A stretch of 30,778 nucleotides of DNA from an uncultured Actinomycetota bacterium (GTDB lineage Bacteria; Actinomycetota; Actinomycetes; JAFAQI01): contig CAVYQE010000005.1 of NCBI GenBank assembly GCA_963770565.1, positions 1 to 30,778 on the forward strand, in the 5' to 3' direction. Positions 10,943 through 30,778 of this stretch are shown in pieces; the stretch's first letter is position 1; each line of letters begins with the position of its first letter. A program made the position numbers and the translations under genes. The notes below the pieces were generated by a model that worked only from the letters and a program-made list of their open reading frames with translations, searched no databases and was not told the DNA's origin.

Positions 10943-10943
10943 A

Positions 10944-11981
10944 CTAGCTCCGAGGCTGGCTAACAGTCTCGGAGTGCTGGCGGGGGCGGGGGATGATGGT
11001 CTGCGGTCGGGCCATGGACCGTCGCGCGGTCGGGCGCGAAGTCCGGAGCGTCAGCGGGGCCGGCGAGTCCGCGTTGCGCACCCCGCGGATCGCTGCCTCC
11101 TCGATGGTCGCGGTGGACAGCGCCTCAGCTTCGACCGGTAATGCCAGGCCGAGGCCGCCGAGCCGCCGCGCGATCTGCTCCTGGTGGTCGTCGACGTGCT
11201 CGCCGTGCTCGATCTGCCGGGGCACGAGGATGGGCGACCTCCCGACGCTCATCGCTTGCAAGGCCGAGCCGACGCCCGCGTGGCAGACGACGACATGGGC
11301 CTCGCTCATCAGTTCGGTCAGCTCGTCGTGGCTGAGGAACTCCTCGATCCGGGCGGCCCGCATGCCGGCAATCGGTGGGGTGTGGCCGAGCTGCCAGACC
11401 ACCTCGGCGTCCTTCGGGAGCACCGCGTTGAGGTTCTTCACCAGCCGGGTCATGGGATGGTGCATGCTGCCGACGGTGACCAGAACGCGAAGCGGACCGG
11501 TCGGCCGCTCAACCGCGCAGCCGGTGTAGCCGTCGAACACCGAGCCGGCGTACGTCCACTTCGAGTCCGCCCAGTCGGTCGACTGGGTGTAGCAGCGCAC
11601 CCGCGGCATCGCCGCCGCGACCTGACCGGTGATCGACGGGCCGTCGACGCGGGCCGCGCTCTCGATGTAGTGCCCGGAGGCGCGATAGATCCGCGCCGCG
11701 ACGAAGAAGGGGATCGCGACGCTCGCGCCCGTGCTGACGACGACATCGACCTTCTCCTGGCGCACGATTCGGCGGGCAACGCCGAGCAGCGACATCGTCT
11801 CCCGCAGCTGCCTTGGCTGGATGTCGGGAATCCAGTGGACGTCGTGACCGGCGAGCAGCGCCTTGCTCTGCGGGCTCTCGGCGGCTGCCCAGACGACCTC
11901 GTCGATGCCTGCGATCCGTCGCGACCAGGACTCGAGTTGCACCATATGACCGCCTGTCGAGGCAACCAATAGCGCACGCAT
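10944..11981 (-). CDS. Fused PssD/PssE (Alg14/Alg13, CpsF/CpsG-like) glycosyltransferase
   Basis: N-half: VASTGGH..QL, VVSTGA.VA.PF, YIES.AR...PS.TG. C-half: VLVTVGS, VVCHAGVGS, VPR....GEHVDDHQ. Confidence 0.88.
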   Translation of the reverse strand: MRALLVASTGGHMVQLESWSRRIAGIDEVVWAAAESPQSKALLAGHDVHWIPDIQPRQLRETMSLLGVARRIVRQEKVDVVVSTGASVAIPFFVAARIYRASGHYIESAARVDGPSITGQVAAAMPRVRCYTQSTDWADSKWTYAGSVFDGYTGCAVERPTGPLRVLVTVGSMHHPMTRLVKNLNAVLPKDAEVVWQLGHTPPIAGMRAARIEEFLSHDELTELMSEAHVVVCHAGVGSALQAMSVGRSPILVPRQIEHGEHVDDHQEQIARRLGGLGLALPVEAEALSTATIEEAAIRGVRNADSPAPLTLRTSRPTARRSMARPQTIIPRPRQHSETVSQPRS

Positions 11982-12193
11982 AAGTCGAACATAGCGCCCG
12001 GTTGATTGGGCCGTTCGGGGAATGCCCAGATATCACCCGAATGCCGTATCAAGGATCGGTCATACTCGGTGCGGTCGTGCCGCAGGTGACCAGTCGACCT
12101 GCTTGTGACCAACCGGGAGCCCACGGATTTCGAGGCAATCAGGACGGTAGGCGTCGGCGGTCGCCGGACTCCGAGTGAGGATGTGGAAGGCAG

Positions 12194-13738
12194 TTGCCGA
12201 GCCCGACGACCCAGGCCGAGGCGGCCTCGCCGACTGCCGCCCACGGCGTCGCGCGCGGCAGCGCGCTGAACGTCATCGGGGCAGCGGCGACCGCCGTACT
12301 GAGCTTCGTGGTCGTCGCGGTGGTCACGCGGGGAATGACCAGGACCGACGCCGGCGTCGTCTTCACTGCCACGTCGCTGTTCGTCCTGGTCGAAGCACTC
12401 GCTCGCCTCGGCGCCGACGTCGGCGTCGTCCATCACTTGGCCGGTGCGCTGGCGCGCGGACGGGATCAGGCCGCGAGCAGCGTCCTGGTGGCCTCGCTGC
12501 TGCCGGTCGCGCTCGGTGGCACCCTCGCCGGGATCGTCCTGTTGGCAGTTGCCGGGCCGCTCCAACCGCTCATCGTCGGCCATCACGGCATCCGGCACGG
12601 CCTGCTCATCGTTGTGGTCCTCGCGGTGTGCATGCCGATCGCCGCGACCTACGACGTCATGACCGCTGCGACGCGAGCGCTCGGCTCGACCCGGCCCACC
12701 TTCGTGGTCGAGCGGTTGCTGCGTCCGATCGTGCAGCTCGCCGCGGTGGGTGTGACCGTCGGGCTGCACGAAGGTCCAGTGGCCGTGGTGGCCGCGTGGA
12801 CCCTGCCCTACGTGGTGTCGGCAGCCGTCATGGCGGGCTGGCTGCGGCGACTGATGCACCGGGCCGGCCTCCCGCTGTGGTCAAGCGAGTGGGCCAGCGT
12901 GATGCGACCGGTCTGGGCTTTCACCGGGCCCCGCGCGGCCGCCAGCGTGCTGCAGATGGCGTTGCAGCGCCTGGACATCGTGCTGGTCAGCGCACTGCTC
13001 GGTTTGCCCGCCGCCGCGGTCTATACCGGCGCCACCCGCTTCGTCGTGGTCGGGCAGCTCGGCAATCAGGCGGTCGCCTACTCCGTCCAGCCGCAGCTGC
13101 GTCGCCTGCTGGTCCGCGGCGAGCGGGCCGATGCCTTCCACCTGTTCCAGACCTCGACGACGTGGATCGTCGCTTTGACCTGGCCGCTGTACCTGACTGT
13201 CATCTCGATGGCCCCGCTGCTGCTGCGGATCTTCGGCGCGCACTACGGCAGCGGTGAAACTGCGGCAATCACCGTGACTGCGGCAATGTTGGTCGCGTCG
13301 GCTTGCGGGCTGGTCGATATCGCACTTCTCACGGCCGGGAAGTCGGTGTGGAACCTCGCGAACGTCGCGCTCGGCCTGACCGTCAACGTCACGATCGATC
13401 TGATCCTGATCCGCCGGATCGGCATCGAGGGAGCTGCGGTGGGCTGGGCGGCGGCAATCCTGCTGTGCAACCTGGTCCCGCTCTGGCAGATCCACCGGCG
13501 GGTAGGGCTGCACCCGGTGAGCCGGACCTGGCTGCTGACCATCGTCGTCGCGCTGCTGGCGTTCCTCGGCCTGCCCGAGCTCGGCGGTGTGCTGCACCCC
13601 GGCCATTTCATCGGTGCGCTCGCCGGCCTGATGCTCGGATCGGCCCTCTATCTGGCGGTGCTCTGGCGGTCTCGCCGTGCGTTGGCGCTCGATCAGCTTC
13701 TGGTCCGACGCGGGCGTGGTCGGGCGGCCGTGGTCTAG
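12194..13738 (+). CDS. Wzx-type polysaccharide flippase (MOP superfamily)
   Basis: Many hydrophobic helices, VARGS.LN start, QRLDIVLV, LI...GIEGAA.GW. TTG start follows GGAAGG. Confidence 0.88.
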   Translation: MPSPTTQAEAASPTAAHGVARGSALNVIGAAATAVLSFVVVAVVTRGMTRTDAGVVFTATSLFVLVEALARLGADVGVVHHLAGALARGRDQAASSVLVASLLPVALGGTLAGIVLLAVAGPLQPLIVGHHGIRHGLLIVVVLAVCMPIAATYDVMTAATRALGSTRPTFVVERLLRPIVQLAAVGVTVGLHEGPVAVVAAWTLPYVVSAAVMAGWLRRLMHRAGLPLWSSEWASVMRPVWAFTGPRAAASVLQMALQRLDIVLVSALLGLPAAAVYTGATRFVVVGQLGNQAVAYSVQPQLRRLLVRGERADAFHLFQTSTTWIVALTWPLYLTVISMAPLLLRIFGAHYGSGETAAITVTAAMLVASACGLVDIALLTAGKSVWNLANVALGLTVNVTIDLILIRRIGIEGAAVGWAAAILLCNLVPLWQIHRRVGLHPVSRTWLLTIVVALLAFLGLPELGGVLHPGHFIGALAGLMLGSALYLAVLWRSRRALALDQLLVRRGRGRAAVV

Positions 13739-14799
13739 GGACTCCTCACGGCCGTGGGTTTGGACGGGTTGAACCATGGGTCGGACGCGACCTGCCGCAA
13801 TGCCTCGGCAGCTGGCGAACCCGGCCCGATCACATAGTCCCGGTTCGAGGAGTGCCCGATCGGGTTGTAGTCGAAGTACACGGCTGCCTTGATCTGCGGC
13901 GTCTTGCGGATGAACACAGCGGCGTTGGTGATCCACTGTGCGCGGACGTCCGGTGCGTAGCTTTCCGGTACGCCGATCTCGCCGAGCATCAAGGGCTTCC
14001 CCTGGCCTCGGGCCCAGGCGAGGAAGGCACCGATCTCATGCGACAGCTGTTCCACCGGCCCAACGGGATCGGGGTAGGCATCGGTGCAGATCCAGTCGAC
14101 CTCGGCCGCCCCGGGGTAGTACTGCTGCGCCGTACCGCGCTCGAACCCGGTCGCGGTCGGGCACCAGACCCAGGATGCGTTCGTGACCCCGGCCGCACCG
14201 AAGATCTGACGGACGTGATCCCAGGCTGCGATGAACGTGGCCGGACCGTGCACAACCGAGGCGAGGTTCGGCCGGTCCATCTCCCAGCGCAGCTCGAGGA
14301 AGACCGGAGCGCGCAACGAAGCCACCTCGGCGGCCACGCCCCGAATCTCGGCGTCATCGGCTCCGCTGGCCATGGTGGCCAGGTCGGTGCCCGTCCAGGA
14401 GATCAGAAGCATCTGTCCAGCCTTGGCCGTCGCCCGTTGGCTGTCGGTCGGAAACGGCTTCTCCCACTGGAGGTAGCTGTGCACGATCGCGATCGGATGG
14501 CAGATCGCGACCTCCAGTTCGGCGGTGGAGGCGATGTACTTCTCCTGGGTGAAGACCGTGCCGTTCAGGGCGAAGGCGCCGAGGTAGGCGCCATGAGCGG
14601 GGACTACCGGCGCCCCGGCCGCGATCGACCGGGGAAAAGCGGGCTTCGGTACGGCGGCCCGGCACTGGGCCGTGCTCGCTCCGCTCGGTTCGCTCGAGCC
14701 GCAGGCGACCGCGCCGGCGGCGGTCAAGACGAGGGCCGCGACGGCCCGGCTCCAGCCTCGACCGCTCAGGCCCGCCAACTCGGAACCCAGCCCAGCCAT
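13735..14799 (-). CDS. GH26-like glycoside hydrolase, probable lipoprotein
   Basis: Hydrophobic stretch ending in the lipobox-like GAVA-C followed by GSS. Motifs PVFLELRWEMD, WVWCP, YYPG...VDW...D.Y, KPLMLGEIG. Start is approximate. Confidence 0.82.
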   Translation of the reverse strand: MAGLGSELAGLSGRGWSRAVAALVLTAAGAVACGSSEPSGASTAQCRAAVPKPAFPRSIAAGAPVVPAHGAYLGAFALNGTVFTQEKYIASTAELEVAICHPIAIVHSYLQWEKPFPTDSQRATAKAGQMLLISWTGTDLATMASGADDAEIRGVAAEVASLRAPVFLELRWEMDRPNLASVVHGPATFIAAWDHVRQIFGAAGVTNASWVWCPTATGFERGTAQQYYPGAAEVDWICTDAYPDPVGPVEQLSHEIGAFLAWARGQGKPLMLGEIGVPESYAPDVRAQWITNAAVFIRKTPQIKAAVYFDYNPIGHSSNRDYVIGPGSPAAEALRQVASDPWFNPSKPTAVRSP

Positions 14800-15622
14800 T
14801 CGGCCAGCTCGTCGTCCCACGGGCGGAAGTGGTCCTCGAGCTGGTGCCGGATCGGCTCGGGCATCGGCGACCTGGGCCGGGCATTGTGTCGCTCGAAGAC
14901 CGGGTCTCCGGCAAGCGGGAGGTCGAGAAACTCGAGGGTCTCGGTCCAGACCGCTTCCGGCTCGGCGAAGAAGCGGTGGCTGTCGACGACGTGCAGCCGC
15001 GGCCGGCCGAAAACCGCTTCGAGGCGGCGGAGCAACTCGACATAGTGTCCGCGCGCGACGTACGCGTGATGTTGGTGGTCCAGGCTCACGAGGTGCGGAT
15101 TGCGGGTCAGCAGGTCGTCCTGGCCCTCAAGGCGCAGCGACTCGAGTTCGAGCGCGCGCTCGAACGGCTCGGTTTCGAAACCGCGGGCGAGCTCGTGTGC
15201 ATGGGCGGAGTAGGCGCGCTCGACCGGGTCGCGAATGAGCACGATCAGCTTGACCCCGGGCAGATCAGCATTGATCCGGGCGGCCGCAAGCGGATGAAAG
15301 CCGTAGTACGGGCTGGACTCGAGAATGACCGGCGCCATTCCGGTCCGCCGCCGGACCCGGTCGACCGTGGCACGAAGTGGGAAGTGTCCGCGGTACCACG
15401 TCTCGCCCGGTCGTAGCCAGTGTCGAAGTAGTGCACGCCCTTGCGACCGACCGCGCGCAGGACGGCGGGGTGCTGGATCAGTGCCCGGTACATCGATGTC
15501 GTACCGCATCGCTGCCCGCCGGCGATGAGCACGTTGGGCAACGTGCGCAGGCTCGCGGTCGGCCGGCCGACGACGGGGACGAAGGATGCCTGGAAGGCGT
15601 GAGTGAGCTGTTGACGTGCCAT
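14766..15622 (-). CDS. PAPS-dependent sulfotransferase (Sulfotransfer_1, heparan-sulfate sulfotransferase-like), one frameshift as assembled
   Basis: LPNVLIAGGQRCGTTS, KGVHYFD, ESSPYY, KLIVLIRDPVERAYS, G.Y...L. Adding one base to the run at 15406-15408 restores YDRGETWYRGHFP. TAATG coupling to the upstream gene. Confidence 0.87.
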
Positions 15623-16847
15623 TACACGCCTCGTGCGGGAGCGAGATCAGCGAGCGCAGCTTCGACGGTCGGGAGCAGCCAGCGCTCGAGGTGTCCGATC
15701 GCTGCGCCGGCCTCGGCCTGACGGTCGCGCTCGTAACGCAGACCAATGTGCACGAGGTAGAGCAGCGCACTGACCGCCGGATCCGTGTCGCCGGCACCGA
15801 GGCCGGCGAGGACACGAGGTGCGTCGGCGACCACCCGCTCGGCCAGGGCCGGCAGGTCGTCCGGCGTACGGACGTAGAGCTCGTTCAACCGGAAGTGCAG
15901 CAGGTCCAGGCCGGCCGGCGTCGCCGGCTCGTAGCGCTCCCAGTCCCAGACCAGGAGCGCATCGTCGGTGAGCCACATGTTCCACGGCGTCCAGTCGCCG
16001 TGCGAGGCGGTGAACGTCACCGGCCGGTCGCCGAGGTCGTCGGTGATCCGCTCGACGCAGTCGGCGAGGCGCCGGGCCCGCTCGCCGGACGGCAGCGCGC
16101 GCACGCCGAGCCGGATGTCGGCCCAGTAGGCGCTGTCCCGCAAGGGACCCCGGACGCCGAGTCCGGTTGCCGCGACCGCGCGGGCAGCCCTGGTGACGTC
16201 GCCGAGCTGCGGGGACCGGCCGGGCAGCCAGGTGGGCAAGGGCTCGAGGGTGAGCACCGGTTGCCCGGCAAGTGACCCCATGTGGGTGACCTTCGGCACC
16301 CGCACCGAGCTCGGCAGTCGCTCGCCGAGAGTCGGGAGCGCCGCACCCTCGCGGCGGACGAGCTCGGCGGTGAGCTCGTCGACGCCCACCTTCGCGAACG
16401 CCACGGGTCGCGAGGAGTCGGCGGCCAGCGCCTGGACCACCGGCTTGCGGTTCGCGCGGTCGGGCGTGAGATGTACCGCCACCGAAACCGGTCGGCCCAG
16501 CGCGCGGGAGAGGTGGTCGTCGATGCCGGCCACCGGTGACGTACCGGGCGAGAGGACGCCCAGCCGGGTACGCAGCGGTGCAGTCCCGGTCACCGCGAAC
16601 AGGCCGCCCGCGGCGGAGAAGCCCCAGCGGGCGCCGCGGGTCAGCCGGCCGCCGTACGCCGGAGCGCGATCGCAGCGGCGCCGCGGGGCTCGACCGGCAC
16701 GAGCAGGCGCGGCCGGGCCGCGCTGGGGGCGACGGCAAAGGTCCGCCCCGGGTCGGTCCGCGGTCCGGCGGCGCCCACCTCGGCGCCCGGGAAGAGGTCG
16801 GTGAGCGCGGTGACGGCGTACCGAAGCCGCGGGTGGTCAGGGCTCAC
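15622..16847 (-). CDS. APH / choline-kinase-fold phosphotransferase, one frameshift as assembled
   Basis: FAKVG, Brenner-type HGDWTPWN and VWDWE. GTG at 16847 overlaps the wzy stop (GTGA). The N-terminal frame joins the 16593 frame if one base is added near 16658. Confidence 0.78.
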
Positions 16848-18229
16848 GCAAGCTCGCCGGTGGGTTCGCGCGTGGGCCAGACATGGAGGTTCCGGCAGGC
16901 GATACCGATCGAGAGCATGCTCAACATCAAGCTGGTCGGCAGGTTGTTGTAGAAGAAGGTGTAGAAGACGCTCAGGATCGCGATCAACCGGGCCGCGGAG
17001 CCGATCAGACTCCGGTCGGCTCTCAGCCGCCACCAGGCGACGGCGAAGAAACCGACATAGAGGAACGCTCCGACCAGGCCCTGGTCGAACATCACCAGCC
17101 AGATCTCGCCAGTGCTGCCGAGGTTGACCGCGCCGCAGGTCGGGCATTTGGCGCTGGGTCCGATGGCGATGGACTGCGAGCTGCCGATGACCTTGCGGCT
17201 GCCGCCCCACCCGATCAGGGGGGATTCCAGCGCGCCCTTCAACGAGGCGTGGTCGACGTTTGATCGGATGCCGTTGCTCGCGCCGTGGTTGGCGCGTTGC
17301 TGGACGACCTGGTTCAACGGCGTGAGTAGGAAGAGCACCGCGCCTACCCCCACTGTCGCGATCGCCACCATCGTGGCGCGGGCATCGCCACGGCGGGCCA
17401 GTCGCACGATGACGAACGCGAGGCTGAGCAGCAGGCCGAACCACAGTCCCCGGTTGAGCGAGTAGACGATCGGGACAATGGCAATGAGCAGGACGACCGC
17501 GAGGCGGGCGCGGTTGCGCATGATCGCCGGCTCCCAGAGGTAGGCGCAGAACCACACCAGCAGGATCGACAGGTTGTTTCCCCACAGGTTGGTGTAGCCC
17601 CACGGTGCTGCTGGACGAGGAGCCTGGAAGCCAAGGACGTCCTGAACCTGCGCGGCCTGCGGGTGGACGAGTGACTTGACGTACTGGTTGGAGCGGAAGC
17701 TGTGCGGGAGTAGGTGTTCGAACGGAGCGTTGTACGAGAAGTGTGGTGCCGCCAGGGCCAGCAGCCCGCCCCCGACGGTCACGATGAACAGCCAGGCCAT
17801 CCACTTCACCAGCCGTCGTTGCGGAAGCTCTGCAGGCGAGAGGTTGACGACGTAGAGAAGGAAGATCGTGGCGGTAACCAGCTGGATCAGTCGCAGCAGC
17901 AGGCTGATCGAGCGCCCGCTGATCGAGCCGGCGGTGGTGTCCGGCGCGTGCGCCGGCAACATCACCAGGCTGAGCAGGTTCCAAATCAGGAACACGGCCC
18001 ACACCCGGATTCCCGCGGGGAGCCGGATCGGCCGGCGGTGCAGCAGGGTGATCGACATCGGGATCGCGGCGAGGATGAACTCGAATGCGCCCAGACCGAG
18101 TGCCCACCAGAGCGGGTAGAGAACGAGCGCTGCCCACAACGGCCACCCAGGGAACAACAGCCGGCGCCGTTGCCTCCCCGTGGCCGGCCGCTGTTGCGAG
18201 ACGACGTGCGGGGCTTCAGCGAGCAGCAT
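16844..18229 (-). CDS. Wzy-like polymerase / O-antigen ligase family membrane protein
   Basis: About 10-12 hydrophobic segments, RP.AP..YTN.WG, SLNRG.W, SN..R, SPLIGWG, G....V....GLVG. Located directly downstream of the co-polymerase. Confidence 0.8.
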   Translation of the reverse strand: MLLAEAPHVVSQQRPATGRQRRRLLFPGWPLWAALVLYPLWWALGLGAFEFILAAIPMSITLLHRRPIRLPAGIRVWAVFLIWNLLSLVMLPAHAPDTTAGSISGRSISLLLRLIQLVTATIFLLYVVNLSPAELPQRRLVKWMAWLFIVTVGGGLLALAAPHFSYNAPFEHLLPHSFRSNQYVKSLVHPQAAQVQDVLGFQAPRPAAPWGYTNLWGNNLSILLVWFCAYLWEPAIMRNRARLAVVLLIAIVPIVYSLNRGLWFGLLLSLAFVIVRLARRGDARATMVAIATVGVGAVLFLLTPLNQVVQQRANHGASNGIRSNVDHASLKGALESPLIGWGGSRKVIGSSQSIAIGPSAKCPTCGAVNLGSTGEIWLVMFDQGLVGAFLYVGFFAVAWWRLRADRSLIGSAARLIAILSVFYTFFYNNLPTSLMLSMLSIGIACRNLHVWPTREPTGELA

Positions 18230-19858
18230 CGACCGGACGCGTCGGGACCGACGACCCGCCCGAGGAGTGCGCGCCGGCACTCGACGACTGGCTGGGCAGC
18301 ACCGAGTCGCCGCCCTGCGGTTCGCTTACCTTGCGGCGTGGCGCTCGCCACAACGCGGCCCCGAGCAGCCCGGCTACTGGTCACCGAGATCTGGTCGATG
18401 ACCTCCCCGAGGTCGGCTCGCTTGGTACGCATCGGGTCGACCACGAGAATGCTCGCTTCGCTGAGTTCGGCCAGGACATAGGCATTCGCGTCGGTGGAGG
18501 CCGGGTCGCCCTCGATGATCACGTAGCGCGCCCGCCGCCGCGCGTCGTCGAGGTTGGCCCGCATCGTGGCTGGGAACGAGCCCGGTGAGGCCTCGATCGG
18601 CGTGCGGATGAATGCGCCAAGCGCGGCGCCGGACAGATCCGGCTCCGGCTGGCCTGGGTCGCGCCGGCTGGGCCAACGCAACGCGCTGTCGCCCGGGTCC
18701 GGCGGCGGCTCGGCGAACTGCTTGGCGACGACCGCGACTGCGGTGGCGGGCAGCGGCGCCGTGTGGGCCGCCGCGACGACCTCCACGTCGTTGCCCAGGG
18801 AGGCGAGGATCGCGGCGAGGCCCCTCGCGAGACCGCTGTCAGCCTGACCGGGCGAAACCGGCGCTATGTAGACGATGCCGCCCTCGTGGCCGAAGGCGCC
18901 CGCGACGACGCTGGCGATCCGTGGTCGAACCGGCTTCGCGCGGCCGCCTCTCGGCGTCGGCCCGTCGAGCGACCCCCCGGCGGGCCGGCATCGCTGCGAT
19001 CACGTCGACGCCGACTGCGGCCAGATCGTCACTATTACCGACATAGCGCCCATAGCGTTCGCGACCGATGACAGCGCCGATCCCGAGCAGGACCCCGAGG
19101 ATCAGCCCGGTGAGCGGCAGGATCGCCCGGCGGATTTGCTCGCCGTCCCGGGGCCTGCGACGACGATCACTCGACCGGGGTCCTCGGGCGTGTTCACCAG
19201 GTTGTCGAGCTGAAGGTTCAGCTGGTTGAGGTTGGTCTGGAGGGTGGCCTGAAGCGCGATCGCGTAGGTCTTGACCGGGCCGGCAGGTGCTTGGGCGACC
19301 ACTTTCGCCTGGTTCTGGAGCGCCTTTCGCGCTGAACTGAGTGTCTTCTGCGTCACGGTGATGTCAGCGTCGAGCGTCGACTTCTGAACCGCTGCGCGGT
19401 CTTGAAGGTACGCAGTGGCGAAGGCGTTGGCGCAGGTTTGGGCGCCCAGCGCCGAGCGGGCCTTGCACGCGATTTGCAAGACGGATGAATTGGGCGGAAC
19501 CGTCACGGACACGCGACTCAGGAGCGAACCCACCGTACTGGGTAATCGAGAATCTTCTTCGCAATAGTCCCAACCGTCGTCGATACGACGATTTGTGCTT
19601 TGTGTCGAGAAGGTCACCGGCTGGTTGGTGCGCCCATTCGCGACGTTGATCGAGGCTTGCTGGCTCACCACGTTGGTCGCATCGACCTGAACCCGGGCAG
19701 CTCAGCTGTACAACGGTGGCTTCACGGCCGCGCCCGCCGCGCCGGCGAGAAGCCCTAAAACAATACAAACGATGAGCAACCACCGGTGCCGCTTGAGTGG
19801 CCTGAGGTAGTGGCCGAGGTCGAAAGCTCGAGTCGTGGCCGGTGACTTGACTGGGCAT
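18216..19858 (-). pseudogene. Wzz/Wzc-type polysaccharide co-polymerase with degenerate BY-kinase domain; several indels and one in-frame stop as assembled
   Basis: Reconstructed across frames: ATG 19858 (GAGAGG RBS), FDLGHYLRPLKRHRWLLIVCIVLGLLAG (TM1), TGA at 19702-19704, DT.AQIVVS, VSVTVPPNSSVLQI, coiled coil, PGRVI, LTGLILGVLLGIGAV (TM2), P-loop-like region, YVIIEG, stop at 18216. Confidence 0.78.
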
Positions 19859-21203
19859 CTGGGCGGCACCTCTCGAGAAGACCTTGGGCCCCCTGGTTCG
19901 GCCTTTCAGGGTACGCGCTGTCCCTGGTCTTCGTAACAGGCGCTTTGGCGGAGTTCGAGTGCGCCGTTCGGGTGATCGGTGCAGGGTTCGAGTGGAGGAT
20001 TGATACCGGCGCGCGGTCCGGGCGGCCATAAGAGCCCTTAATCGGCCTTAAGCCACGCAAATAGTGATGAAGAACCCAAAATGTACGTGAACAGCGCATT
20101 CGGTATTGATAATCTTCGGGGGGTCTCCGGCTTGCCCTGTTCGTCGGCCGCGGCGATCGACGGTCGAGCCACTTTCCGGCCCGCTGCCCGGTCCATGCGG
20201 CCCTGGTCGGATGGCCTAGGCCAAGCGAGTGGTTTGCGCTGGGCTACTTGGCGTATGGCTCAAGTAGGCCAACAGCCAGGGCGATGAACGACTAGGTACC
20301 GCCTAGTCACAGAAGTTGGTGTTGGAGATGGGTTCGCACGCGAAGCCGAGACACCCCCATCGGCTTCATCCCCGGCGTGCGCTGATGGCGCTCCCGGTGG
20401 TCGGCATCGTCACGGCCTCAGTGGCCGGCGTCTCCTATGCCGCGGTCGGCGGGGTGAATCCCCGGGGGTCAGTCGGGCACGAAGCCGGTGCACGCCCTGA
20501 CCCTCGAGCCTCGTCAGCAACGGGCGATCCTCGTGGGCCACATGCTCGTCGTTCGAGATGCCGGCGATACCTACACAGCCTCGGCCAAGCCGCGTATGCA
20601 CCACGGTGGGCGGGCTCGGATCGCTGCCATGACAGCCGGCACAACCGCCAGGTCGCCTACATCAAGTTCGACAACGTCCCTGGGCACCGCGCCAGGGTCA
20701 GTTCATCGGAGCGGCCGTCCTCAGGCTGCAAAAGGCATCCCGTCGGCTACCAGCCGGCGGATCTGCGGGTCTACGAAGTCAGCCCAAGTCAATGGACACA
20801 ACACAGCCTCGATGCCCGCGACGCGCCAAGGCTCGGGCGGCTGGTCGCCACCGGACAGTCCCGTCGGACCGACCAGACCGTCTCGTTGACGGTCGGGTTG
20901 TCCGTCTCGACGGCCGGCACTCATGCGTTCGCCATCACCACCTCGGCCCGGTCCGAGGTGGAGCAGTTCCACGCTCGGGAGTCCGGCACCGCGCCGACCT
21001 TGACCTTGACTTACCGGTACGTCGCGCCCGGGGCGGGGCGCAAGCTGCCGAGAAGGCATCCGACCTCGAGCCCGTCTCCCACTCCTTCCGACACCCCCAG
21101 CCAGAGCCCGTCCCAGACGCCGACCGCGTCGCCGACGACCTCGATCCCGCCGACCCCGACCTCGAGTCCGACCACGTCCTCGACGCCGACCTCTTCGCCA
21201 ACT

Positions 21204-21290
21204 CCGACCGATTCCGGCACCCCGACGGCGTCCGCGACCCCGACCGATTCCGGCACCCCGACGGCGTCCGCGACCCCGACCGATTCGGGC
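21204..21290 (+). repeat. 36-bp coding tandem repeat ([12 protein letters not shown]), two full copies plus a partial copy
   Basis: ccgaccgattccggcaccccgacggcgtccgcgacc at 21204 and 21240, partial at 21276. Confidence 0.9.
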
Positions 21291-21326
21291 TCGCCGACGC
21301 CCACCGTGACCCCGACCGTCAGCAGT

Positions 21327-21442
<116 letters not shown>

Positions 21443-22662
21443 CGTCAGCCGTACCCCGACGCCGTCAGTCTCTCCGACCTCACCGGCGAACGGCTGTTCG
21501 CTGTCGACCATGCTGGTGCCGAGCTGCGGAGTCCTGCTCGGTGGATACCTGAGCAGCTTCGGCGGCACGAACGCCGACGGCCAGATGACGAACTTCGATG
21601 CTGACAGTGGGAGCACGGTCTCGGTGGTGCACGACTACCGCCGCCCCGGACAGACCCTGTCGGCCGGTGACGTTCAGGTTGCCCAGACCCCGGGTGTGCT
21701 CCTGCTGCTGAACTGGAAGCCGGCCAACACCTGGTCGGACGCCGGAGGCGACAATGCCAGCGTGAACTCCCAGATCGACGCCATGGCGGAGAGCATCAAG
21801 GCGCTGGGCAACACCAAGATCTTCTTGACGATCTTCCACGAGCCCGAGAACGACGTCAGCGGCGGCGCGAGTAACTGCCCAAACACGATCTACAAGGGAA
21901 GTGCGGGCACGCCGGCCGACTATCGAGCGATGTGGGCGAACGTCGAAGCCCGGTTCGCGGCGCTGAACGTGACCAACGTGGTCTGGGTCATGAACTACAT
22001 GGGCTTCACCGGCTGGAACTGCATGGTCGACGACCTATCGGCCCGGCAACAGTCTCGTGGACTGGATCCTCTGGGACCAGTACTCGAGCGACACCACGAA
22101 CTTCGTGCAGGCGGTGAGCCCGTTCTACAACCTGCTCACCAGCACGTCGGACGCGACTCACGACTTCACCTCGAAGCCGTGGGGGCTTGGGGAGTTCGGT
22201 GACCGGGCTACCTCCGACGCCAACCAGGAGCAGTTCTACTCGACGGTCGCCCAGGCGATCGACGCCGGCGACTTCCCAAAGATGAAGTTGTTCACAATGT
22301 TCGACGCGATCGGCACGACTGGCGACTATCGGGTCGCGTACGACCATGCCGGGATCTTCGACCCCAAGGAGCTGGCCGACCTCAAGGTGCTCGACCAGGA
22401 CCCGAACGTCGTGGGTGGCCAGGAGTCGATCGACGGGGGATTCTTACCAGAACGGCGCAGCGCCGGGGGCGGTCCGTTCGACGGGCGCGGTCTCCGGCTA
22501 CGCCGTTGGAGTTAAATGTCGGTGAGATCCGGACAAATACTGCTGTGAGTTTGCTGGATCGCCTGACCCGGGGTCACGGTCGTCCTATCGTCGTCCCGCA
22601 ACACCGATGGTCCCGGCGACTTGAAGCAGGACGAATCGGGTGTTGGCTGGATAAGGATCCTC

Positions 22663-25600
22663 ATGCCCAGGATTCGCTTCTCCCTTCCTGTCTTGCCCGT
22701 GGTCGTCGGCCTGTTGGCCAGCTCGATAGTGGGACTCGCCGCCTCTCCCGCGGCAGCGGTCTCACCGACACAGCCGAACATCGTCAACGCGGTGCCCGCC
22801 ACCGCGACGCCGGACGTGAACAACGGCGCGGTGTACGCCATCGGACAGGTCGGCAACACCATGTACCTGGGCGGGTCCTTCACCTCGGTGAGCCCACATG
22901 CGACTCCGGGCACGGTCTACACGAAGAACTATCTCTTTGCCTTCAACGCGACAACCGGCGCGATCGACACCACCAACTTCCTGCCGACGGTCAACGGTGA
23001 AGTCGACCGGATCATCCCCGGCCCGGCCGCCAACGAGATCTACATCGCGGGCACGTTCTCGAGCGTCGACGGCAAGACCATGCACGTCGCGCTGCTGAAC
23101 ACGACGAATGGTGCGCTGGTCAGTACGTGGAAGCCGGCGTCGCTGAACGGCACAACCAAAGGCATCGTGCTCGCCGACGGTTACCTGTTCGTCGCCGGCT
23201 TGTTCTCGACCGCCGGTGGGGTCAGCCACGCCGGCCTCGTGGCGCTCGACCCGAACACCGGCGCGGCCACCAACTACGTCCAGCTGGCGTTCACCGGGCA
23301 CCACAACTACGGGACCCTGTGCAACCCGGGCACATCGTCGTGCGCCAACGCAGGCACCGGCGTTCGCCGCATCGATGTCGACCCATCGGGCACGCATCTG
23401 ATCGCGATCGGCAACTTCAACACCGCCGGCCCGACCGGCGGCCCGGGCCTGCCACGTGACCAGATCGCCATGATCGACCTCGGCCCGACGTCCGCGCGAC
23501 CGTTGACCCGAACTGGGCACCGACGCCTACACCGCGCAGTGCTACAACGGGCGCGTTCGACACCTACGTCCGCGACATCCAGTGCTCGCCGGACGGCTCG
23601 TACTTCGTCGTCGTCGCGACCGGTGGCAGCGGACGAACAGCGACGGCACCAACTCCTCGTGTGACACGCCGCCCGCTTCGAGACCAGCCGACCGGCTCCG
23701 ACGTGCGCCCGACCTGGGTCGACTACACCGGCAAGGACACGCTCTAGTCGTGTCGCGGTCATCGGCGCGGCGGTCTACGTCGGCGGCCACCAGCGCTGGC
23801 TGAACAACCGCTACGGCTACGACTACGCCGGCGCCGGGCGCGGTCCCGCGTCCGGGCCTCGCCGCGCTCGACCCGGCCAACGGCGTGCCGCTGTCCTGGA
23901 ACCCGGGCCGCAACCCGCGCGGCCAGGCGCCGAGGTCACTTCTCGCCACCTCGCCGGCATCTGGGTCGGCAGCGACACCGACTACATCGGCAACCACCCG
24001 TACAAGCACGGCAGAAGATCGCGTACTTCCCGTTCGCCGGCGGCGACGGTCGCGCCGAGCGATCGACCCGGCGACCCGCCGGGCAGCGTCTTCGACGGCC
24101 GGGGCAGTTCGCCAACCAGCACCCAGTGCTCTACCGCGTCGACGCCGGCGGCCCGGCATCCAGTCCAACGACAACGGACCCGACTGGGCGGCCGACACCA
24201 GCCAACCCCCCCTAGCACAACGGCGGCAGCAACACCGCGGGCTACGGCCCGCTGCACGCCAGGCGCGGCACCGTCCCGTCCTACATGCCCCGGCGATCTT
24301 CAACACCGAACGCTGGGATCCGGGCAGCACGACGACGGCAGCGAGATGACTGGGACTTCCCGGTGCCTGCCGGACACCTAAGTCCGGCTGTTCTTCGCCA
24401 ACCGCTACACCGGAACAGCCAGGTCGGCCAGCGCGTCTTCGACATCACGATCGACGGCACACGGTCCTGCCGAACTACGACATCGTGGCCGACGTCGGCG
24501 ACCAGACCGGCACGATGAAGAGCTCACCGCGACCAGCGCCGGCGACGTCACCATCGACTTCACCCAGAGGTCGAGAACCCGCTGATCAACGGCATCGAGA
24601 TCGTGAAGGAAGTCCGGCTCTCGACCAACTTCTCCCCAACCCGGTGCCGATCCACTTAGGTCTGAGATCCGGCGGTGCGGAGATCAACGCCATCGAGACG
24701 GTCTAGGCCTGCTAGACTGGCTTCGAGGACGACGGGCGACACAGTCGGCCACACCGGCGACGTGGTCCGCACCGGCTGGGGCAACGTCGCCAACTGGGGC
24801 CCCAGGCCTCTGGAACGGCACGGCTCTCGGCCCGACCGTCCCGTCGGACGTGCCGGCGGACATCTATTTCTCCACCGAGCGCGGTGGGGGCGCCTGGCAG
24901 ACCCTACAACTTCTCCGGTTGCGGCCGGGACGCCGCTGACGGTCAACCTGTTCATGGCCAACAACTGCAGCTGCACCCAGAACCCCGGCAACCGGGTCTT
25001 CAACGTCGCCATCGACGGGAACCCCGTGCTGTCGAACTACGACATCGTGGCCGACGTCGGCAACCTGGTCGGTGAGATGAAGTCGTTCAACGTCACTGCA
25101 CCGGCCAACGGCATGGTCACGGTTGCGTTGACCAACGGGCCGTCGGACAACGCCGTGATCAACGGTGTCGAGGTCGACCAGACCGGCCCGACTCCCACGC
25201 CGCCGACAGTCAATGTCGACCGGCTGAGCTACCGCCACTACGACGGTACGACGGCCGGGTCCGGGGTCACGCTGCCCAGCAGCATCCCGTGGGGCTCGAT
25301 CCGAGGCGCGTTCACCGTCAACGGTGAGCTCGTCTACGGCAAGGGCGACGGCAACCTCTATGAGCGCAGCTTCAACGGCTCGACGTTCGGATCCGAGGTC
25401 CTGCTCGACCCGTGGAACGACCCGACCTGGGACAACGTCCAGACCGGCTCCGGCCAGACCTACCAGGGTGCGGAGTCGCAGATCGGCGCCGAGATTCCCT
25501 CGATCACGTCGATGTTCTTCACCAACGAGCGGCTCTACTACACGTTGGCCAACAACCCGACGATGTACTGGCGCTGGTTCGAACCACGACGGCATCGTCG

Positions 25601-27632
25601 GCTCGGACGAGTTCACCGTGAACGACGGCGAGAACTGGTCCGACGTCGCAGGCGCCTTCCTGTCCGGTAACACGCTCTACTACGCCGACAAGGCCACTGG
25701 GGAGCTGTTCTCGATCGCGTGGAACGGCACCCAGGCGACCGGTTCGCCGAGTGTCGCGGACACGTCGACCGACTGGGCCAGCCGCGGGATCTTCATGCTC
25801 GCGGACGCGACCAACCCGAATCAGCCTCCGGTGGCGGGCTTCCTCGCGACCTGCTCGACGACGTCGACGGCGTGCACGATGGATGCCTCGGCCTCGCACG
25901 ACCCGGATGGGACGATCACCGATTACGCGTGGGACTTCGGCGATGGCACGTCTGAGCACCACCCGGACGCCACGGTGTTCTCCCATGACTTCGGTACGGC
26001 GGGCAAGTACACCGTGACCCTGACGGTGACCGACAACGACGGAGCGACCTCGACCAAGACCGAGACGGTGACGGTCGGCGAAACGACGCCGGTCCCGACG
26101 TTCGCCGGTGCGACGACCGCCTGCGGTCCTGGCACTGGTGCCTGCGGGAGCAGCCCGACGACCAACGTCGCGGTGCCGCAAGCACCGCGAAGGGTGACGC
26201 GTTGTTGATGTACGTCACGTGGCCGACCAGCACGACGGTCACTGCGTCGGTTCCGGCTGGCTGGCACCTGCTCGGCACCGACGTCAGCAGCCCGCTGGAG
26301 ACGGATGTCTACTACCGCACGGCGACCGGTGCCGACGTCGGCACCAACGTCACGGTGACCTTCAGCGCCAAGACCCGTAACTCGGTGACCCTGGCCGACT
26401 ACAGCGGTGCTGACTCGAACACCATCGAGGCCTTCGCCAAGTCGGGCGACTCCAGCACGGCGTCGCACACCACACCGACGGCAACCGTGTCGACCGACGG
26501 CAGCCTGGCGGTGTCGTACTGGGCTGACAAGTCCTCCTCGACCTCAGCCTGGACGCCGCCGGGAAGCGTGACGAGCCGCGCAACGTTCTTCGACACCGGC
26601 ACCGGGTACGTCACCTCGCTGCTCGCCGATTCCGGGTCGACGGTCAACAGCGGCTCGTACGGTGGCAAGACGGCGACGTCGAGCCCGGGAACGAGCGGCA
26701 AGGGCACGGAGTGGACGATCATCTTGGCGCCGGCCGGCACGACCAACGCTGCACCGGTCGCCGCGTTCACCTCGAACTGCAACACGTCGTTGCAGTGCAC
26801 CTTCGATGGCTCGAGCTCCTACGACCCGGACGGCACGGTGAGTACCTGGGCGTGGACCTTCGGTGACGGCAACACCCAGGCCGCCAGCGGCTCGTCGAGC
26901 GCGTCGAACACCTACGCGGTGCCGGGCACCTACCCGGTGACCTTGACGGTGACGGACAACGGCGGCGCCACGAATTCGGTGACGCAGTCGGTGAATGTCT
27001 CCGGTCCGGTGCAGAACATCGGGTTCGGCGGGACCAACACCTTCGACGGGACCAGCACCGGGCCGTCGGTGTCGGTTCCGAACTCGACGGCAGCCGGCGA
27101 CACGTTGCTGCTGTTCGCGTCCTACGCCTCGACGTCGATCACCGCGACGACGCCGTCCGGTTGGACGCTGGCCGGGACGAAGACCGGTAGCAATCTCACC
27201 AGCTTGGTCTACGAGAAGTCGGCCACGGCCGGCGATCTCGGGTCGAGTGTGGCGGTGGCGCTGTCCGGCTCGGTCAAGGCAAGCCTGACGATTGCCGACT
27301 ACGCGAACGCGGCGGCCTCGCCGATCGAGACCAGCGCATCTGCGACCTCGACCGGCACCTCGCACTCCGCGCCTGCGGTGTCAGGTCTGGTCAGCGGCAC
27401 GTGGGTAGTGTCGTACTGGACCGACAAGTCCTCGACCACGTCCCTGTGGACGCTGCCCGGTGGGGTGACCCAGCGGGCGACGGTCTACGGTTCGTCGGGC
27501 GGCGCGATCAGCGCGGCGCTCGGTGACACGAACGGCGCGGTCAGCGGCAGTTACCCGGCTCAGACGGCGACGACGAACGTGTCGAGTGGTGCGGCGGTCC
27601 AGTGGACCATCGCACTGTCGCCCGCGTCGTAG
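22663..27632 (+). pseudogene. Large secreted protein of about 1650 aa: beta-propeller-like repeats + 2 malectin domains + (PKD + C-terminal beta domain) x2; many indels as assembled
   Basis: ATG 22663 with AAGGA RBS and a signal peptide ending PAAA. Repeats V.AI...G...Y.GG.F. Malectin motifs VLYRVDAGG, ERW, RVF.I.IDG, NYDIVADVG, INGIE. PKD motifs WDFGDG/WTFGDG and YTVTLTVTDN. Continuity is inferred from the colinear paralog downstream. Confidence 0.78.
24471..25061 (+). repeat. 29-bp exact direct repeat marking the tandem malectin duplication
   Basis: cgaactacgacatcgtggccgacgtcggc at 24471-24499 and 25033-25061. Confidence 0.85.
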
Positions 27633-27655
27633 GGATCCAGCAAGGGAGAGAGTGA

Positions 27656-30642
27656 ATGCGCGGGAGACCCCGGCTACGCTCGCGCGCGTTCACCTCTCGC
27701 CTCTGGATCGTCCCGCTCGCAGGTCTCGGCCTCATCGCGTCGAGTGCGTTGTGGGCAGCGCCGGGCGCAGGAGCTTTTCAGGCTGACCAGCAGAGAGTGG
27801 TCAGTGCGGTGCCCGCGGCGAACACCCCGGACGTCAATGACGGCGTGGTCTTCGCGATCAGCCAGGTCGGACCGAAGGTCATCCTTGGTGGCAGCTTCTC
27901 GTCGGTGCGGCGGGCGGGCAGCAGCACGGTCTATCCGCTGCGATACGCGATGGCGTTCGATGCCCGGACCGGCGCGGTGGATCACACCGGGTTCACCCCG
28001 ATCGTCAACGGCACCGTCTACACGGTGATCCCCGGGCCGGCCCCGCACGAGGTGTACATCGGTGGTGCGTTCACCACCGTCAATGGGCGCCAGATGACAG
28101 TGGCGCTCCTGAAGACCACGACGGGTGCGGTCGTGTCGTCGTGGCGACCGACGCCGATCACCGGCGAGGTCAATCGACTGGTTCTCTCGCACGGCCGGCT
28201 GTATGTCGGCGGCTACCTGTCGAAGGTCGGTGGTCGCGGCAACCACTATCAACGGGATCTGGTGGTGCTCAACCCGACCACCGGCCGGATCAGGCCCTAC
28301 TTCCGGCTCACCTTCACCGGGCACCACTCCTACGGCTCGAAATGCGATCCGGCCAAGGCGAAGTGCGCACCCGGCCGGCTGGGTATCAAGGCCTTCGACG
28401 TCAACCCGGCCGGCACCAAGCTGGTCGCGGTCGGGAACTTCACGGACATCTCCGGTTCGCAGCGCGACCAGGTGGCGCTGATCGATCTTCGCAAGTCCTC
28501 GGCCGTGGTCGACCCGAAGTGGAACACCCTGGCCTACACCGCCACCTGCCTGGATCACTCGTTCGACAGCGATGTCCGCGACGTTCAGTTCTCGCCGAAC
28601 GGGTCGTACTTTGTCGTTGCCGCGGCAGGCGGCGTCGGGACGAACAGCGACGGCACGCGGTCAAGCTGCGACGCGGCGGCGCGGTTCAGACGAACGGTAG
28701 CGGCCACAACGTGCGCCCGACCTGGATCGACTACACCGGCGAGGATTCACTGTGGTCGGTCGCCATCACCGGCCAAGCGGTCTATGTCGGAGGCCACCAG
28801 CGGTGGATGAACAACACCTTCGGCCACAACGCGGCCGAAGGCGGTGCGATCCCTCGTCCGGGGATCGCTGCGCTCAGCCCGCAGAGCGGCCTGCCGTTGT
28901 CCTGGAATCCGGGTCGCGACCCGCGGGGGAACGGCGCCTTCGCGCTGCTTGCCGCCTCGACCGGGCTGTGGATGGGCAGCGACACCAACTACATCGGACC
29001 CGGCAAGTACTTCCGCGCCAAGGTGGCGTTCTTTCCCCTCGCGCACGGGACGGTGGTCCCGCCTGACCCGACGCCGAAGGCGCCTGGGCGGATCTATCTG
29101 GTCGGCGCCACCGCGAGTGGAGCGCCGGATCCGGATCGACTCGTCTATCGCGAGTTCGACGGTGCGACTGCTGGTGCCGAGGAGCCATTGACGACAGGCC
29201 TCGACTGGGGCTCGGTCAACGGAGCGTTCGAGGTCGACGGCAACGTCATCTACGGCGAGTCGGACGGCGGCAGTTCGGGCAACCTGTTCGAACGAAGCTT
29301 TAACGGATCGACGTTCGGGCCCGAGGTCGAACTCGACCCGTTCAACGATCCGGTGTGGGACACCATCAAGACCGGGTCCGGTCAGACCTACCAGGGCAAG
29401 GCGTCGAGTCTGGCGATCCAGTCCCCGTCGATCACGTCGATGTTCTTCTCGGCCGGTCGACTGTTCTATTCGCTGAAGGGCCAGTCGAAGCTGCACTGGC
29501 GGTGGTTCAACCCCGAGTCCGGTGCGGTCGGCGCGGATCAGTTCATCGTTTCCGACCGCCTGGACTGGTCGACGGTCGCCGGGGCGGTTCTGTCCGGGCG
29601 CACGCTGTACTACGCGGACAACACAACGGGCGAGCTTCGATCAGTGCGTTGGACCGGGCATAGGACCCGTGGATCGAGCCGGCTCGTCAACGACGCGACC
29701 GACTGGGCCAGCCGAGGGCTGTTCTTGTTGTCGGGTGCGACGAACCCGACAACAAAGCCGTCTGCGGCCCTCGGCGGCAGCTGTGGGCACAGCGCCACCT
29801 GCACGTTCACGGCGACTCCGTGGGTGGACCCCGACGGCGGGGTGGTGAAGTACTCCTGGAACTTCGGCGACCGGGTGGTCACGCCGTTCTCGACGTCGAC
29901 ATCGGTGTCACATCGCTTCGTGGCCAACGGGGTCCATCAGGTGAAGCTCACGGTTCAGGTCACCTCGGGCACGCAAGCCTCGGTTCGCCACTCGGTGACG
30001 GTCGCCGCGCCGACCGAGAAGATCCGCTTTGTCGGCACCACGCATGCTCGAGGCGCCGGCGCCAAGGTCAACGTGGTCGTCCCCGGGCGGGCGAAAGCCG
30101 GTGACGCACTTCTGATGTTCGGTTCCTACTCATCCTCGAAGGCCACGCTCGGAACCCCAAAGGGTTGGCGCCGAGTGGGACTGCGGCGGCGCAAGGCGCT
30201 CACCACAGTCGTTTACGAGCGGGTGGCCGGCGCGCATGACGCCGGCCGGAGCGTTTCGTTGAAGTTTTCGAAGCCGGTGAACTCCAGCCTGATCGTTGCT
30301 GCTTATCGCCACACCTCGAGCCTGCCGATCGAGGCATTTGCGTCACGACTCGGCACCACCAAGAGATCGAACGCGGCGCCGGTCCTGCGTGGCTTGCCGC
30401 CGGGCGGGTGGGTCCTTGGCTACTGGACCCAGATCTCGAACCGGCCGATGACGTTGCGCGCTCCCAAGGGACTAGTCCTGCGGGCGGTTGCCGACAGCGG
30501 TGGCCGTCCGGTGGACGCGGGGATGCTCGCCGATACCGGAGCCACCTGCGAGGGCAGGTGCCGGATGGGTTCGGCAAGAGCGCAGCGCCACAGCCTCGCC
30601 ACCATTCAGTCGGCCGTGGCGATCGCAGCCGCTCTGAAATGA
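27656..30642 (+). CDS. Secreted beta-propeller-like / PKD domain protein of about 995 aa; Arg/Lys-rich paralog of the upstream gene, one frameshift as assembled
   Basis: GGGAG RBS and a signal peptide ending AGA. Colinear with the upstream protein (TPDVN.G.V.AI.QVG, LSWNPGR.PRG, ERSFNGSTFG.EV.LDP, DWASRG). PKD motif WNFGD. One base is missing near 28688. Confidence 0.82.
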
Positions 30643-30672
30643 AGGCCGCAACAAGGCGGGCCCTCCGACACG

Positions 30673-30678
30673 TAGCCT
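30673..30678 (+). promoter_or_regulatory. -10 element (TAGCCT) of a probable leaderless transcript
   Basis: TANNNT 8 nt before ATG 30687, with no SD sequence. Confidence 0.4.
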
Positions 30679-30686
30679 GAACGGCG

Positions 30687-30778
30687 ATGTCGCTCGCCGC
30701 GCTCTCCGACCTTCTCAGCACCGAACCAGCGATCGCCGACCTGGTCGATCGCCTGGGTACGTCGGAGCTGGACCTTTC
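30687..30778 (+). CDS. mfd: 5' end of a gene running off the window, probably transcription-repair coupling factor
   Basis: MSLAALSDLLSTEPAIADLV resembles actinobacterial Mfd N-termini, and mfd commonly follows pth. Only 30 codons are visible. Confidence 0.5.
   Translation, partial: MSLAALSDLLSTEPAIADLVDRLGTSELDL

Follow-up and report, generated by a model that had tools for sequence, protein, structure and literature searches.

Bap1 and RbmC of Vibrio cholerae are biofilm adhesins that have been compared to a "double-sided tape", and the propeller shared by both proteins binds the cell's own exopolysaccharide (PMC10102183; bioRxiv 10.64898/2026.08.03.742583). They form a secreted, modular pair of paralogs with a common beta-propeller and differing outward modules; the longer paralog has additional lectin-type domains, and the genes are linked to exopolysaccharide genes. 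Here we describe a gene pair of similar design, copies A and B, on contig CAVYQE010000005.1 of an uncultured Actinomycetota bacterium from soil. Both paralogs lie on the plus strand within positions 22663-30642 of the window, by which we mean the whole stretch of DNA that was analysed (30,778 nt, the entire 30.8-kb contig C5). With regard to exopolysaccharide binding, the likeness of A and B to Bap1 and RbmC consists in their genomic linkage to glycan-assembly genes.

The two pairs are unrelated in sequence, and the propeller of A and B has seven blades and is WD40-like, while that of Bap1 is eight-bladed. The module that distinguishes B is a cationic beta-sandwich, in place of a hydrophobic loop or beta-prism. 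The matches listed by Foldseek and VIA-align were generic propellers, with neither Bap1 nor RbmC among them.

Gram-positive bacteria also use non-covalent cationic wall anchors, among them the GW modules in InlB of Listeria and, in the S-layer proteins of Lactobacillus, basic regions that bind the wall. B resembles these in having a strongly basic terminal module on a secreted protein of otherwise different charge and neither an LPXTG motif nor a membrane anchor; here too, anionic wall polymers would retain the protein electrostatically. Unlike them, its C-terminal domain (CTD) has no Pfam match, is unrelated in fold and sequence, and belongs to a family with two charge states, in which about one in seven sampled copies is cationic. 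New in this work are this two-state cationic CTD, its conservation in the clade of B, the association with Wzx/Wzy loci that contain sulfotransferase-like genes, and the recognition of the frameshifts in the window as artefacts.

Domain structure and charge of copies A and B

Neither A nor B is one open frame in the window. Frames were followed by protein-guided alignment with an X at each break, which replaced tblastn high-scoring pairs that run through stop codons. For modelling and searches of B we refer to P0001, an intact ortholog of 996 aa with 96% identity. The features of the pair are as follows.

22663..27632, plus strand: copy A, long acidic paralog of about 1670 aa with about 32 frame breaks (frame-following alignment to the intact allele on contig C4)
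22663..22761, plus strand: signal peptide of A, MPRIRF...AAA/VS, Sec-type, without lipobox cysteine (read from the translation)
22771..24090, plus strand: seven-bladed beta-propeller of A, end approximate owing to frame breaks (57% identity to the B propeller; Pfam matches to DUF5122 and Rax2 below threshold)
24090..25215, plus strand: insertion in A with two malectin-like modules, absent from B (Pfam, translation and intact C4 allele)
25218..25812, plus strand: middle domain of A, unannotated, with a 2-base deletion at 25586 (58% identity to the B middle domain)
25816..26076, plus strand: PKD domain 1 of A (Pfam PKD_4, 75.4 bits)
26133..26642, plus strand: CTD1 of A, beta-sandwich module with a 1-base deletion at 26179 (32% identity to the B CTD)
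26754..27008, plus strand: PKD domain 2 of A (Pfam PKD_4, 72.4 bits)
27012..27629, plus strand: CTD2 of A, near-neutral type (204 positions compared with the CTD of B, 37% identical)
27630-27632, plus strand: stop codon TAG of A
27642..27652, plus strand: Shine-Dalgarno-like AAGGGAGAGAG in the spacer ahead of the B start
27656..30642, plus strand: copy B, basic paralog, 995 aa, a single frame break (28690), 96% identical to P0001
27656..27787, plus strand: signal peptide of B, about 44 aa, arginine-rich n-region, ...GAGA/FQ (read from the translation)
27788..29079, plus strand: seven-bladed beta-propeller of B, net charge +18 (AlphaFold model, VIA-align)
29080..29742, plus strand: middle domain of B, net charge −7 (no Pfam match)
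29743..30012, plus strand: PKD domain of B, net charge +3 (Pfam PKD_4, 47.5 bits)
30013..30639, plus strand: cationic CTD of B, beta-sandwich of 209 aa, net charge +25, pI (isoelectric point) 11.7 (AlphaFold model of the domain alone)

A and B are true paralogs. Their propellers are 57% identical over 416 aligned positions and their middle domains 58% over 198 positions; for the PKD and C-terminal domains the values are 32-39%. A exceeds the layout of B by the malectin-like modules that follow its propeller and by an additional PKD-CTD cassette. The Pfam family Malectin (PF11721) was matched in A at about 24975-25130 with 26.3 bits (cut-off 23); this gathering score was passed in A only, and the match was absent from B and P0001. 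A second RVF(D/N)I(T/A)IDG stretch was seen in the translations of A, and the intact C4 allele has both malectin-like modules, the first of which falls within an error-dense patch of the window.

The two proteins differ strongly in charge. Mature A (1670 aa) has a net charge of −65 and a pI of 4.49 and is rich in Ser (9.7%), Thr (12.8%) and Asp (6.2%), with 2.6% Arg and 1.5% Lys, while mature B (995 aa) has a net charge of +33 and a pI of 9.86, with 6.8% Arg and 3.3% Lys. The original prediction of an acidic and a basic copy, which had proposed a comparison of calculated pI, is confirmed by these values. It had also claimed that neutral residues are exchanged for basic ones along the whole length, based on three peptide pairs, and all three pairs were found in the translations, one each in the propeller, the middle domain and the C-terminal domain. 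Lys and Arg found in B only outnumber those found in A only in every domain (propeller 25 versus 9, middle domain 11 versus 3, PKD 5-6 versus 0-2, CTD 24-29 versus 2-5), so that the claim holds for the substitutions; it does not hold for the resulting charge of B, as the middle domain is still negative and the CTD (+25 in 209 aa) and propeller account for most of the positive charge. In the comparison of A CTD2 with the B CTD, 29 positions are basic in B only and 2 in A only. The A residues replaced by basic ones in B are nearly all neutral, and acidic residues account for 0-2 per domain. Within the CTD, 30 of 31 B-specific Lys/Arg residues replace polar or small residues of the family consensus and stand at columns of above-average entropy, which fits surface exposure.

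The charge gap is not an artefact of frame or composition, as the intact, 96%-identical P0001 folds at a mean pLDDT (predicted local distance difference test) of 91.7 in an AlphaFold model built with a 76-sequence alignment. Residues 1-35, within the signal peptide (1-44), have a pLDDT below 50. The propeller comprises residues 45-475; VIA-align of model residues 44-470 superposed about 290 residues on WD40-type propellers at Z-scores up to 29.5. The middle domain (476-697) has as its nearest Atlas cluster one automatically named "Tachylectin (Fragment)" (score 0.94, 195/256 features), which we take as a lead only; a tachylectin match was absent in Pfam and among sequences of solved structures. 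The PKD domain (698-787) is the only part matched in a profile search of solved-structure sequences, for example to collagenase ColH (E 3.9e-32). Folded alone, the CTD (788-996) reached a pLDDT of 96.7.

Pfam searches with the middle domain or the CTDs alone had no meaningful outcome, and NCBIfam gave nothing useful for P0001. Foldseek returned no match at E ≤ 0.001 for the CTD alone, and the CTD alignment used as a profile against solved-structure sequences gave a single match with E 0.95. In a wide VIA-align search the best Z-score of the CTD was 7.3, covering residues 7-98 only, that is half of the domain, and in a range deemed common; the weak fold neighbours at Z 5-7 were binding modules, e.g., phage tail fibre tips, collagen-binding domains and carbohydrate-binding modules. 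For the whole model, the Foldseek matches listed against PDB were generic double propellers. The top match was the sensor domain of BT4663, which senses heparin (E 4.5e-13), and we rejected a transfer of function from it in view of TM-scores of 0.13-0.21.

The absence of an LPXTG motif and of a C-terminal transmembrane anchor, stated in the original prediction, was borne out: no LPXTG was found in P0001 or in the last 1007 aa of a 95%-identical A ortholog, and in the AlphaFold model the C-terminus of P0001 is the last beta-strand of the fold, with no membrane helix. SLH, CWB2, LysM, GW and choline-binding domains gave no Pfam match in the pieces of A or B or in P0001, where the nearest wall-binding row was a choline-binding repeat with E 0.1, far below the cut-off.

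The stop codon of A and the start of B are separated by a 23-base spacer that carries the Shine-Dalgarno-like AAGGGAGAGAG. Scanning of this spacer revealed neither a promoter-like nor a terminator-like site. Considering the ribosome-binding-like site before B and the lack of promoter- or terminator-like sites between the genes, A and B are probably co-transcribed.

Conservation of the cationic C-terminal domain

A and B both match the profile of a family with the layout signal peptide, seven-bladed propeller, unannotated middle domain, PKD and unannotated 209-aa beta-sandwich CTD; two of its four domains are without a Pfam model. With the C-terminal 651 aa of B as query, 544 proteins were found at E ≤ 0.001 among 7999 scored. 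The relatives, where named by their source, are called only "PKD domain-containing protein" or "PKD repeat protein", and they derive from Actinomycetota. Two propeller motifs, GGH(Q/E)RWxNN and WNPGR(N/D/Q)PRG, are invariant in 76 aligned sequences including P0001. With these motifs as search patterns, at least 605 of 624 matched stretches in species genomes were relatives; the count for metagenome contigs was 564 of 595. A literature search found no paper on this propeller-PKD family, which does not prove that none is in print. A and B are members of a widespread and unstudied Actinomycetota family. A third full-length member in the genome of the window (L151, G000:C2:643061-646087; 1009 aa, net charge −36) is located far from the glycan locus.

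To delimit the clade of B, a FastTree tree (LG+gamma, midpoint root) was calculated from 274 unique sequences less 9 in which gaps made up over 25% of the core; the tree serves this purpose only and not formal counts of events. Among the closest homologs 16 of 22 have a pI above 8, versus 10 of 98 of the others among the matches listed, which suggests that the basic state is under some constraint. In the family as a whole the acidic state prevails: 72 of 103 family frames in loci of species genomes have a pI below 6.5 and 19 a pI above 8, and the corresponding numbers for metagenome loci are 77 and 19 of 106.

The charge of the whole protein is not what is conserved. Net charge within the B clade ranges from −40 to +56, but the CTDs of all 17 members of this clade carry +12 to +33, including five members with an acidic whole protein. 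The alleles in the bin of the window show the same: their B CTDs have +25, +17, +23 and +23, while the matching whole proteins have +33, +27, −12 and −13. On the main contig (C2) B has −13 overall and a CTD of +23. The family-wide distribution of CTD charge is bimodal, with 157 of 184 CTDs below +5, two at +5 to +9 and 25 at +10 or above, and the family median is −1. Outside the B clade cationic CTDs occur in P0073 (+38), P0078 (+38), P0101 (+21) and one member of locus L055 (+12). P0078 comes from the cultured Solicola gregarius, whose genome also codes for the acidic P0081. The conserved character is therefore the cationic CTD and not whole-protein charge, which modifies the basic copy of the original prediction.

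Conservation applies to the net charge of the CTD and not to the positions that confer it. The basic residues of B-clade CTDs are spread over 103 of 209 columns, the median pairwise identity is 43%, and only three clade-specific columns are basic in at least 80% of the members. This fits diffuse electrostatics, as expected for a non-specific surface that binds polyanions, and not a specific site.

One could assume that the charge difference between A and B has no function and reflects drift in a fast-evolving, strain-variable surface protein. The wide range of whole-protein charge in the B clade, its variation among alleles of one population and the hypervariability of the locus (75-80% DNA identity between flanks of 97-99%) are in agreement with this assumption. 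Drift is an improbable explanation: the CTD has kept its charge in 17 of 17 members despite the low identity among them, the family-wide distribution has a gap between +5 and +10, and similar states are found in other branches.

The CTD is also present outside B. A has two copies of it; elsewhere it comes after Metallophos, LamG-like, RCC1-type and RHS-type parts, and it stands at the C-terminus of an 880-aa protein with a Phosphoesterase-family domain in the genome of the window (L150, G000:C11:713912-716551, minus strand; PF04185, E 2e-29; CTD profile E 7e-44). This distribution indicates a portable accessory module.

Some relatives deviate from the layout of B. Several B-type orthologs (L001:10791-13235, L002:10936-13326, P0019, P0024 and P0034) end after the PKD domain and have no CTD; in these the PKD domain itself is basic, with +9 to +11 versus a family median of −5. 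A protein of a Nocardioidaceae locus (L055:5771-8701) has a net charge of +42, due to the propeller (+32) and the middle domain (+17), and a neutral CTD; it lies between paralogs of +8 and −19 and shows that a member of this family can become basic in another way.

The order A-then-B is kept in the window (C5), in C3, C2/C4, L071, L001/L073 and L002. Together with the apparent co-transcription, this would suit binding of acidic A to basic B by electrostatic attraction and co-assembly of both as a matrix or S-layer-like coat, as suggested in the original prediction. A Methanosarcina surface-layer fragment (1l0q, tandem YVTN beta-propeller plus PKD) also has a propeller followed by PKD and was among the Foldseek matches (E 9.5e-12), with a PKD profile match of E 3.2e-11. 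This likeness is generic to the combination of propeller and PKD, as the TM-scores of 0.12 and 0.29 show, and SLH or other lattice domains were absent in the Pfam scans of A, B and P0001. B is acidic overall in C2 and C4, hence complementarity of whole-protein charge is not conserved even within the bin. The original prediction had proposed to examine whether homologous loci keep an acidic/basic pair; among 30 tandem family pairs elsewhere only 7 are of opposite charge and 13 are both negative. We regard such co-assembly as improbable.

Glycan locus and possible functions of the pair

The other genes of the window start with a purple-acid-phosphatase-like gene, glmU, prs, an FkbM methyltransferase gene and two GH26-like genes, followed by rplY, pth, ybjQ, a GT2 gene, two sulfotransferase-like genes and a GT28-like gene; the remaining ones are a flippase gene, a Wzy-like gene and the third GH26-like gene, which has a Pro/Thr linker. 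When the 55 family loci of at least 20 kb were searched with the window genes as queries, sulfotransferase-like genes were present in 26 of them, Wzy-like genes in 22, flippase genes in 21 and GH26-like genes in 19. Within the window's own 4.4-Mb genome, all four types of genes are confined to the glycan locus. The counts indicate that the family is a regular companion of a Wzx/Wzy glycan cluster.

The gene set that recurs around the family (window 9077-18325; L001-L149) consists of sulfotransferase-like, Wzy-like, flippase, GT2/GT28 and GH26-like genes. In L031 and L143 it also adjoins rplY-pth or prs, as in the window. A literature search retrieved no paper on this gene set.

The assignment of the two neighbouring genes as PAPS-dependent sulfotransferases is tentative. 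Pfam scores for the families Sulfotransfer_1 and Sulfotransfer_3 were 24.0 bits (cut-off 27) and 21.9 bits (cut-off 22) for 9994-10959, and 21.8 bits (cut-off 22) and 20.4 bits (cut-off 27) for 14769-15884. Both frames contain an RDP...(Y)S stretch. Their N-terminal parts (minus strand) translate to arginine-rich nonsense; the genes are probably frame-shifted too, and this may explain the sub-threshold scores.

The explanation that we favour, albeit tentatively and at somewhat less than even odds, is that A and B are co-transcribed, Sec-exported, glycan-binding proteins of the surface or matrix, and that B is held by its cationic CTD as an anchor. We infer secretion, glycan binding, the anchoring role and the nature of the anionic partner from the features described above. 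The propeller and the middle domain, common to A and B, would be the glycan-recognising part, with invariant His, Asp, Asn and four Arg in blades 5-7. Towards the outside, A would present its pair of malectin-like lectin modules together with its two PKD-CTD cassettes, both near-neutral, while B would expose a single PKD-CTD cassette with a CTD that has gone over to a discrete, strongly cationic state. This CTD may act as a non-covalent, largely non-specific electrostatic anchor; its polyanionic partner in the envelope would be the polymer of the locus itself or an anionic glycopolymer of the wall. A, which would not be tethered via a cationic CTD, may be more soluble or face outward. In the sub-lineage of the window the propeller has turned basic as well. 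Both proteins would serve the adjacent Wzx/Wzy-type, probably sulfated, glycan locus.

Several points weigh against glycan-binding proteins anchored in this way. The protein set was gathered by similarity to B, so B-like proteins are over-represented in it. Glycan binding is suggested by the malectin modules, by the genomic context and by analogy only; the propeller matches generic WD40-type folds, and no structural neighbour of the middle domain or the CTD was informative. The sulfotransferase-like genes stay below the Pfam thresholds, NCBIfam gave no match on the neighbouring genes, and their assignment leans partly on the RDP...(Y)S stretch, which we take to be a 3′-phosphate-binding motif. 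Basic family members are not enriched beside such genes: they occurred in 5 of 29 loci with a sulfotransferase-like gene and in 5 of 38 loci without it (67 loci of at least 15 kb; Fisher p = 0.74). Most family members in sulfotransferase-like loci are acidic, which gives no support to a sulfated polymer as the partner.

Alternatively, A and B could be enzymes that process the polymer of the locus, such as a propeller-type lyase, epimerase or hydrolase, and the charge of B and its CTD could tune affinity or processivity on a polyanionic substrate instead of fixing the protein to the cell. The propeller has nine residues that are invariant in the 76 sequences (H224, D304, D339, H381, R383, N386, R401, R421 and R424), and such a density of polar residues would suit an active site. 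Moreover, polymer-cleaving enzymes are common in exopolysaccharide loci, and the family is tightly linked to glycan-assembly genes. On the other hand, three GH26-like genes are already present in the locus, the 50 best listed fold neighbours of the propeller are all WD40-type scaffolds with no such enzyme among them, and the Pfam and NCBIfam scans returned no catalytic family. Malectin, PKD and portable beta-sandwich add-ons suit binding proteins as well as enzymes. We therefore consider an enzymatic function unlikely.

Compared to the proposed anchoring of B, a more general view goes further and is rather doubtful at present. The CTD may be a hitherto unrecognised electrostatic anchor of Actinomycetota with two discrete states, which switched to the cationic state several times independently and tethers glycan-binding propeller proteins to an anionic, possibly sulfated, glycan of the adjacent Wzx/Wzy locus; the strain-level charge flips of the whole protein (−13 to +33) would then reflect co-adaptation to the chemistry of the polymer.

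How a matrix is built and held is poorly known for non-mycolate and uncultured soil Actinomycetota. In hundreds of species genomes the family is found next to glycan-assembly genes, and none of its members has been studied. From the two-state charge of the CTD one can predict which members would stay on the cell and which would be free, and it points to a non-covalent surface anchor of a new type.

Frame breaks and versions of the locus

The translation of A is interrupted by 32 breaks, 30 of which are packed into one stretch, the others being located at 25587 and 26180.

23495..24914, no strand assigned: error-dense stretch with about 30 frame breaks in 1.4 kb (break list)

A metagenome contig (L071) is 95.1% identical to window positions 24573-30778 over 6214 columns; both frames are open on it, for A over the C-terminal 1007 aa and for B over the full 996 aa (P0001). 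Compared to L071, the window has 29 small insertions of extra bases within 24611-24914, about one every 10 bases; in isolated deletions it lacks 2 bases at 25586 and one base each at 26179 and 28690, and at 29269 it differs by 3 bases without a change of frame. The missing bases are present in contigs of four public runs wherever the sites 25582-25585, 26177/8 and 28687/9 are covered: runs X1-X3 have two extra G at 25582-25585, and all four runs have one extra base at 26177/26178 and one at 28687/28689. Run contigs barely map to the noisy stretch, and 24611-25032 is almost uncovered.

The main contig C2 carries the locus at 366.9-397.2 kb, and C3, C4 and C5 are three alternative versions of it. 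C4 is 96.4% identical to C2, while C3 and C5 are 75-84% identical, except in glmU-prs, where the identity between C3 and C5 is 99%. The breaks are scattered inconsistently among these versions, with 20 breaks in A on C2 and none on C4, and none in B on C2 and 8 on C4. Based on the open frames in L071, the bases restored by the run contigs and this inconsistent scatter, the frame breaks in A and B are almost certainly assembly errors.

Decay of A and B to pseudogenes, which the 32 breaks in A and the one in B within the window might suggest, is consequently very improbable. The breaks are patchy, with 30 in a single 1.4-kb stretch, and differ between the near-identical contigs C2 and C4; independent contigs restore every isolated break, and intact orthologs exist. 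The apparent gene decay in the window is thus assembly noise in a strain-variable region and not biology.

The region present in four versions in the bin includes the single-copy genes glmU, prs, rplY and pth, and L071 continues from the end of the window directly into C2 sequence with 97% identity. The four versions and the L071 junction indicate that the bin mixes several strains or species, and that conserved flanks enclose a hypervariable island, the glycan locus. The third GH26-like gene (20307-22515), which has a long Pro/Thr linker (PTPTPT...), is split over two frames near 22000-22200, probably also due to an assembly error.

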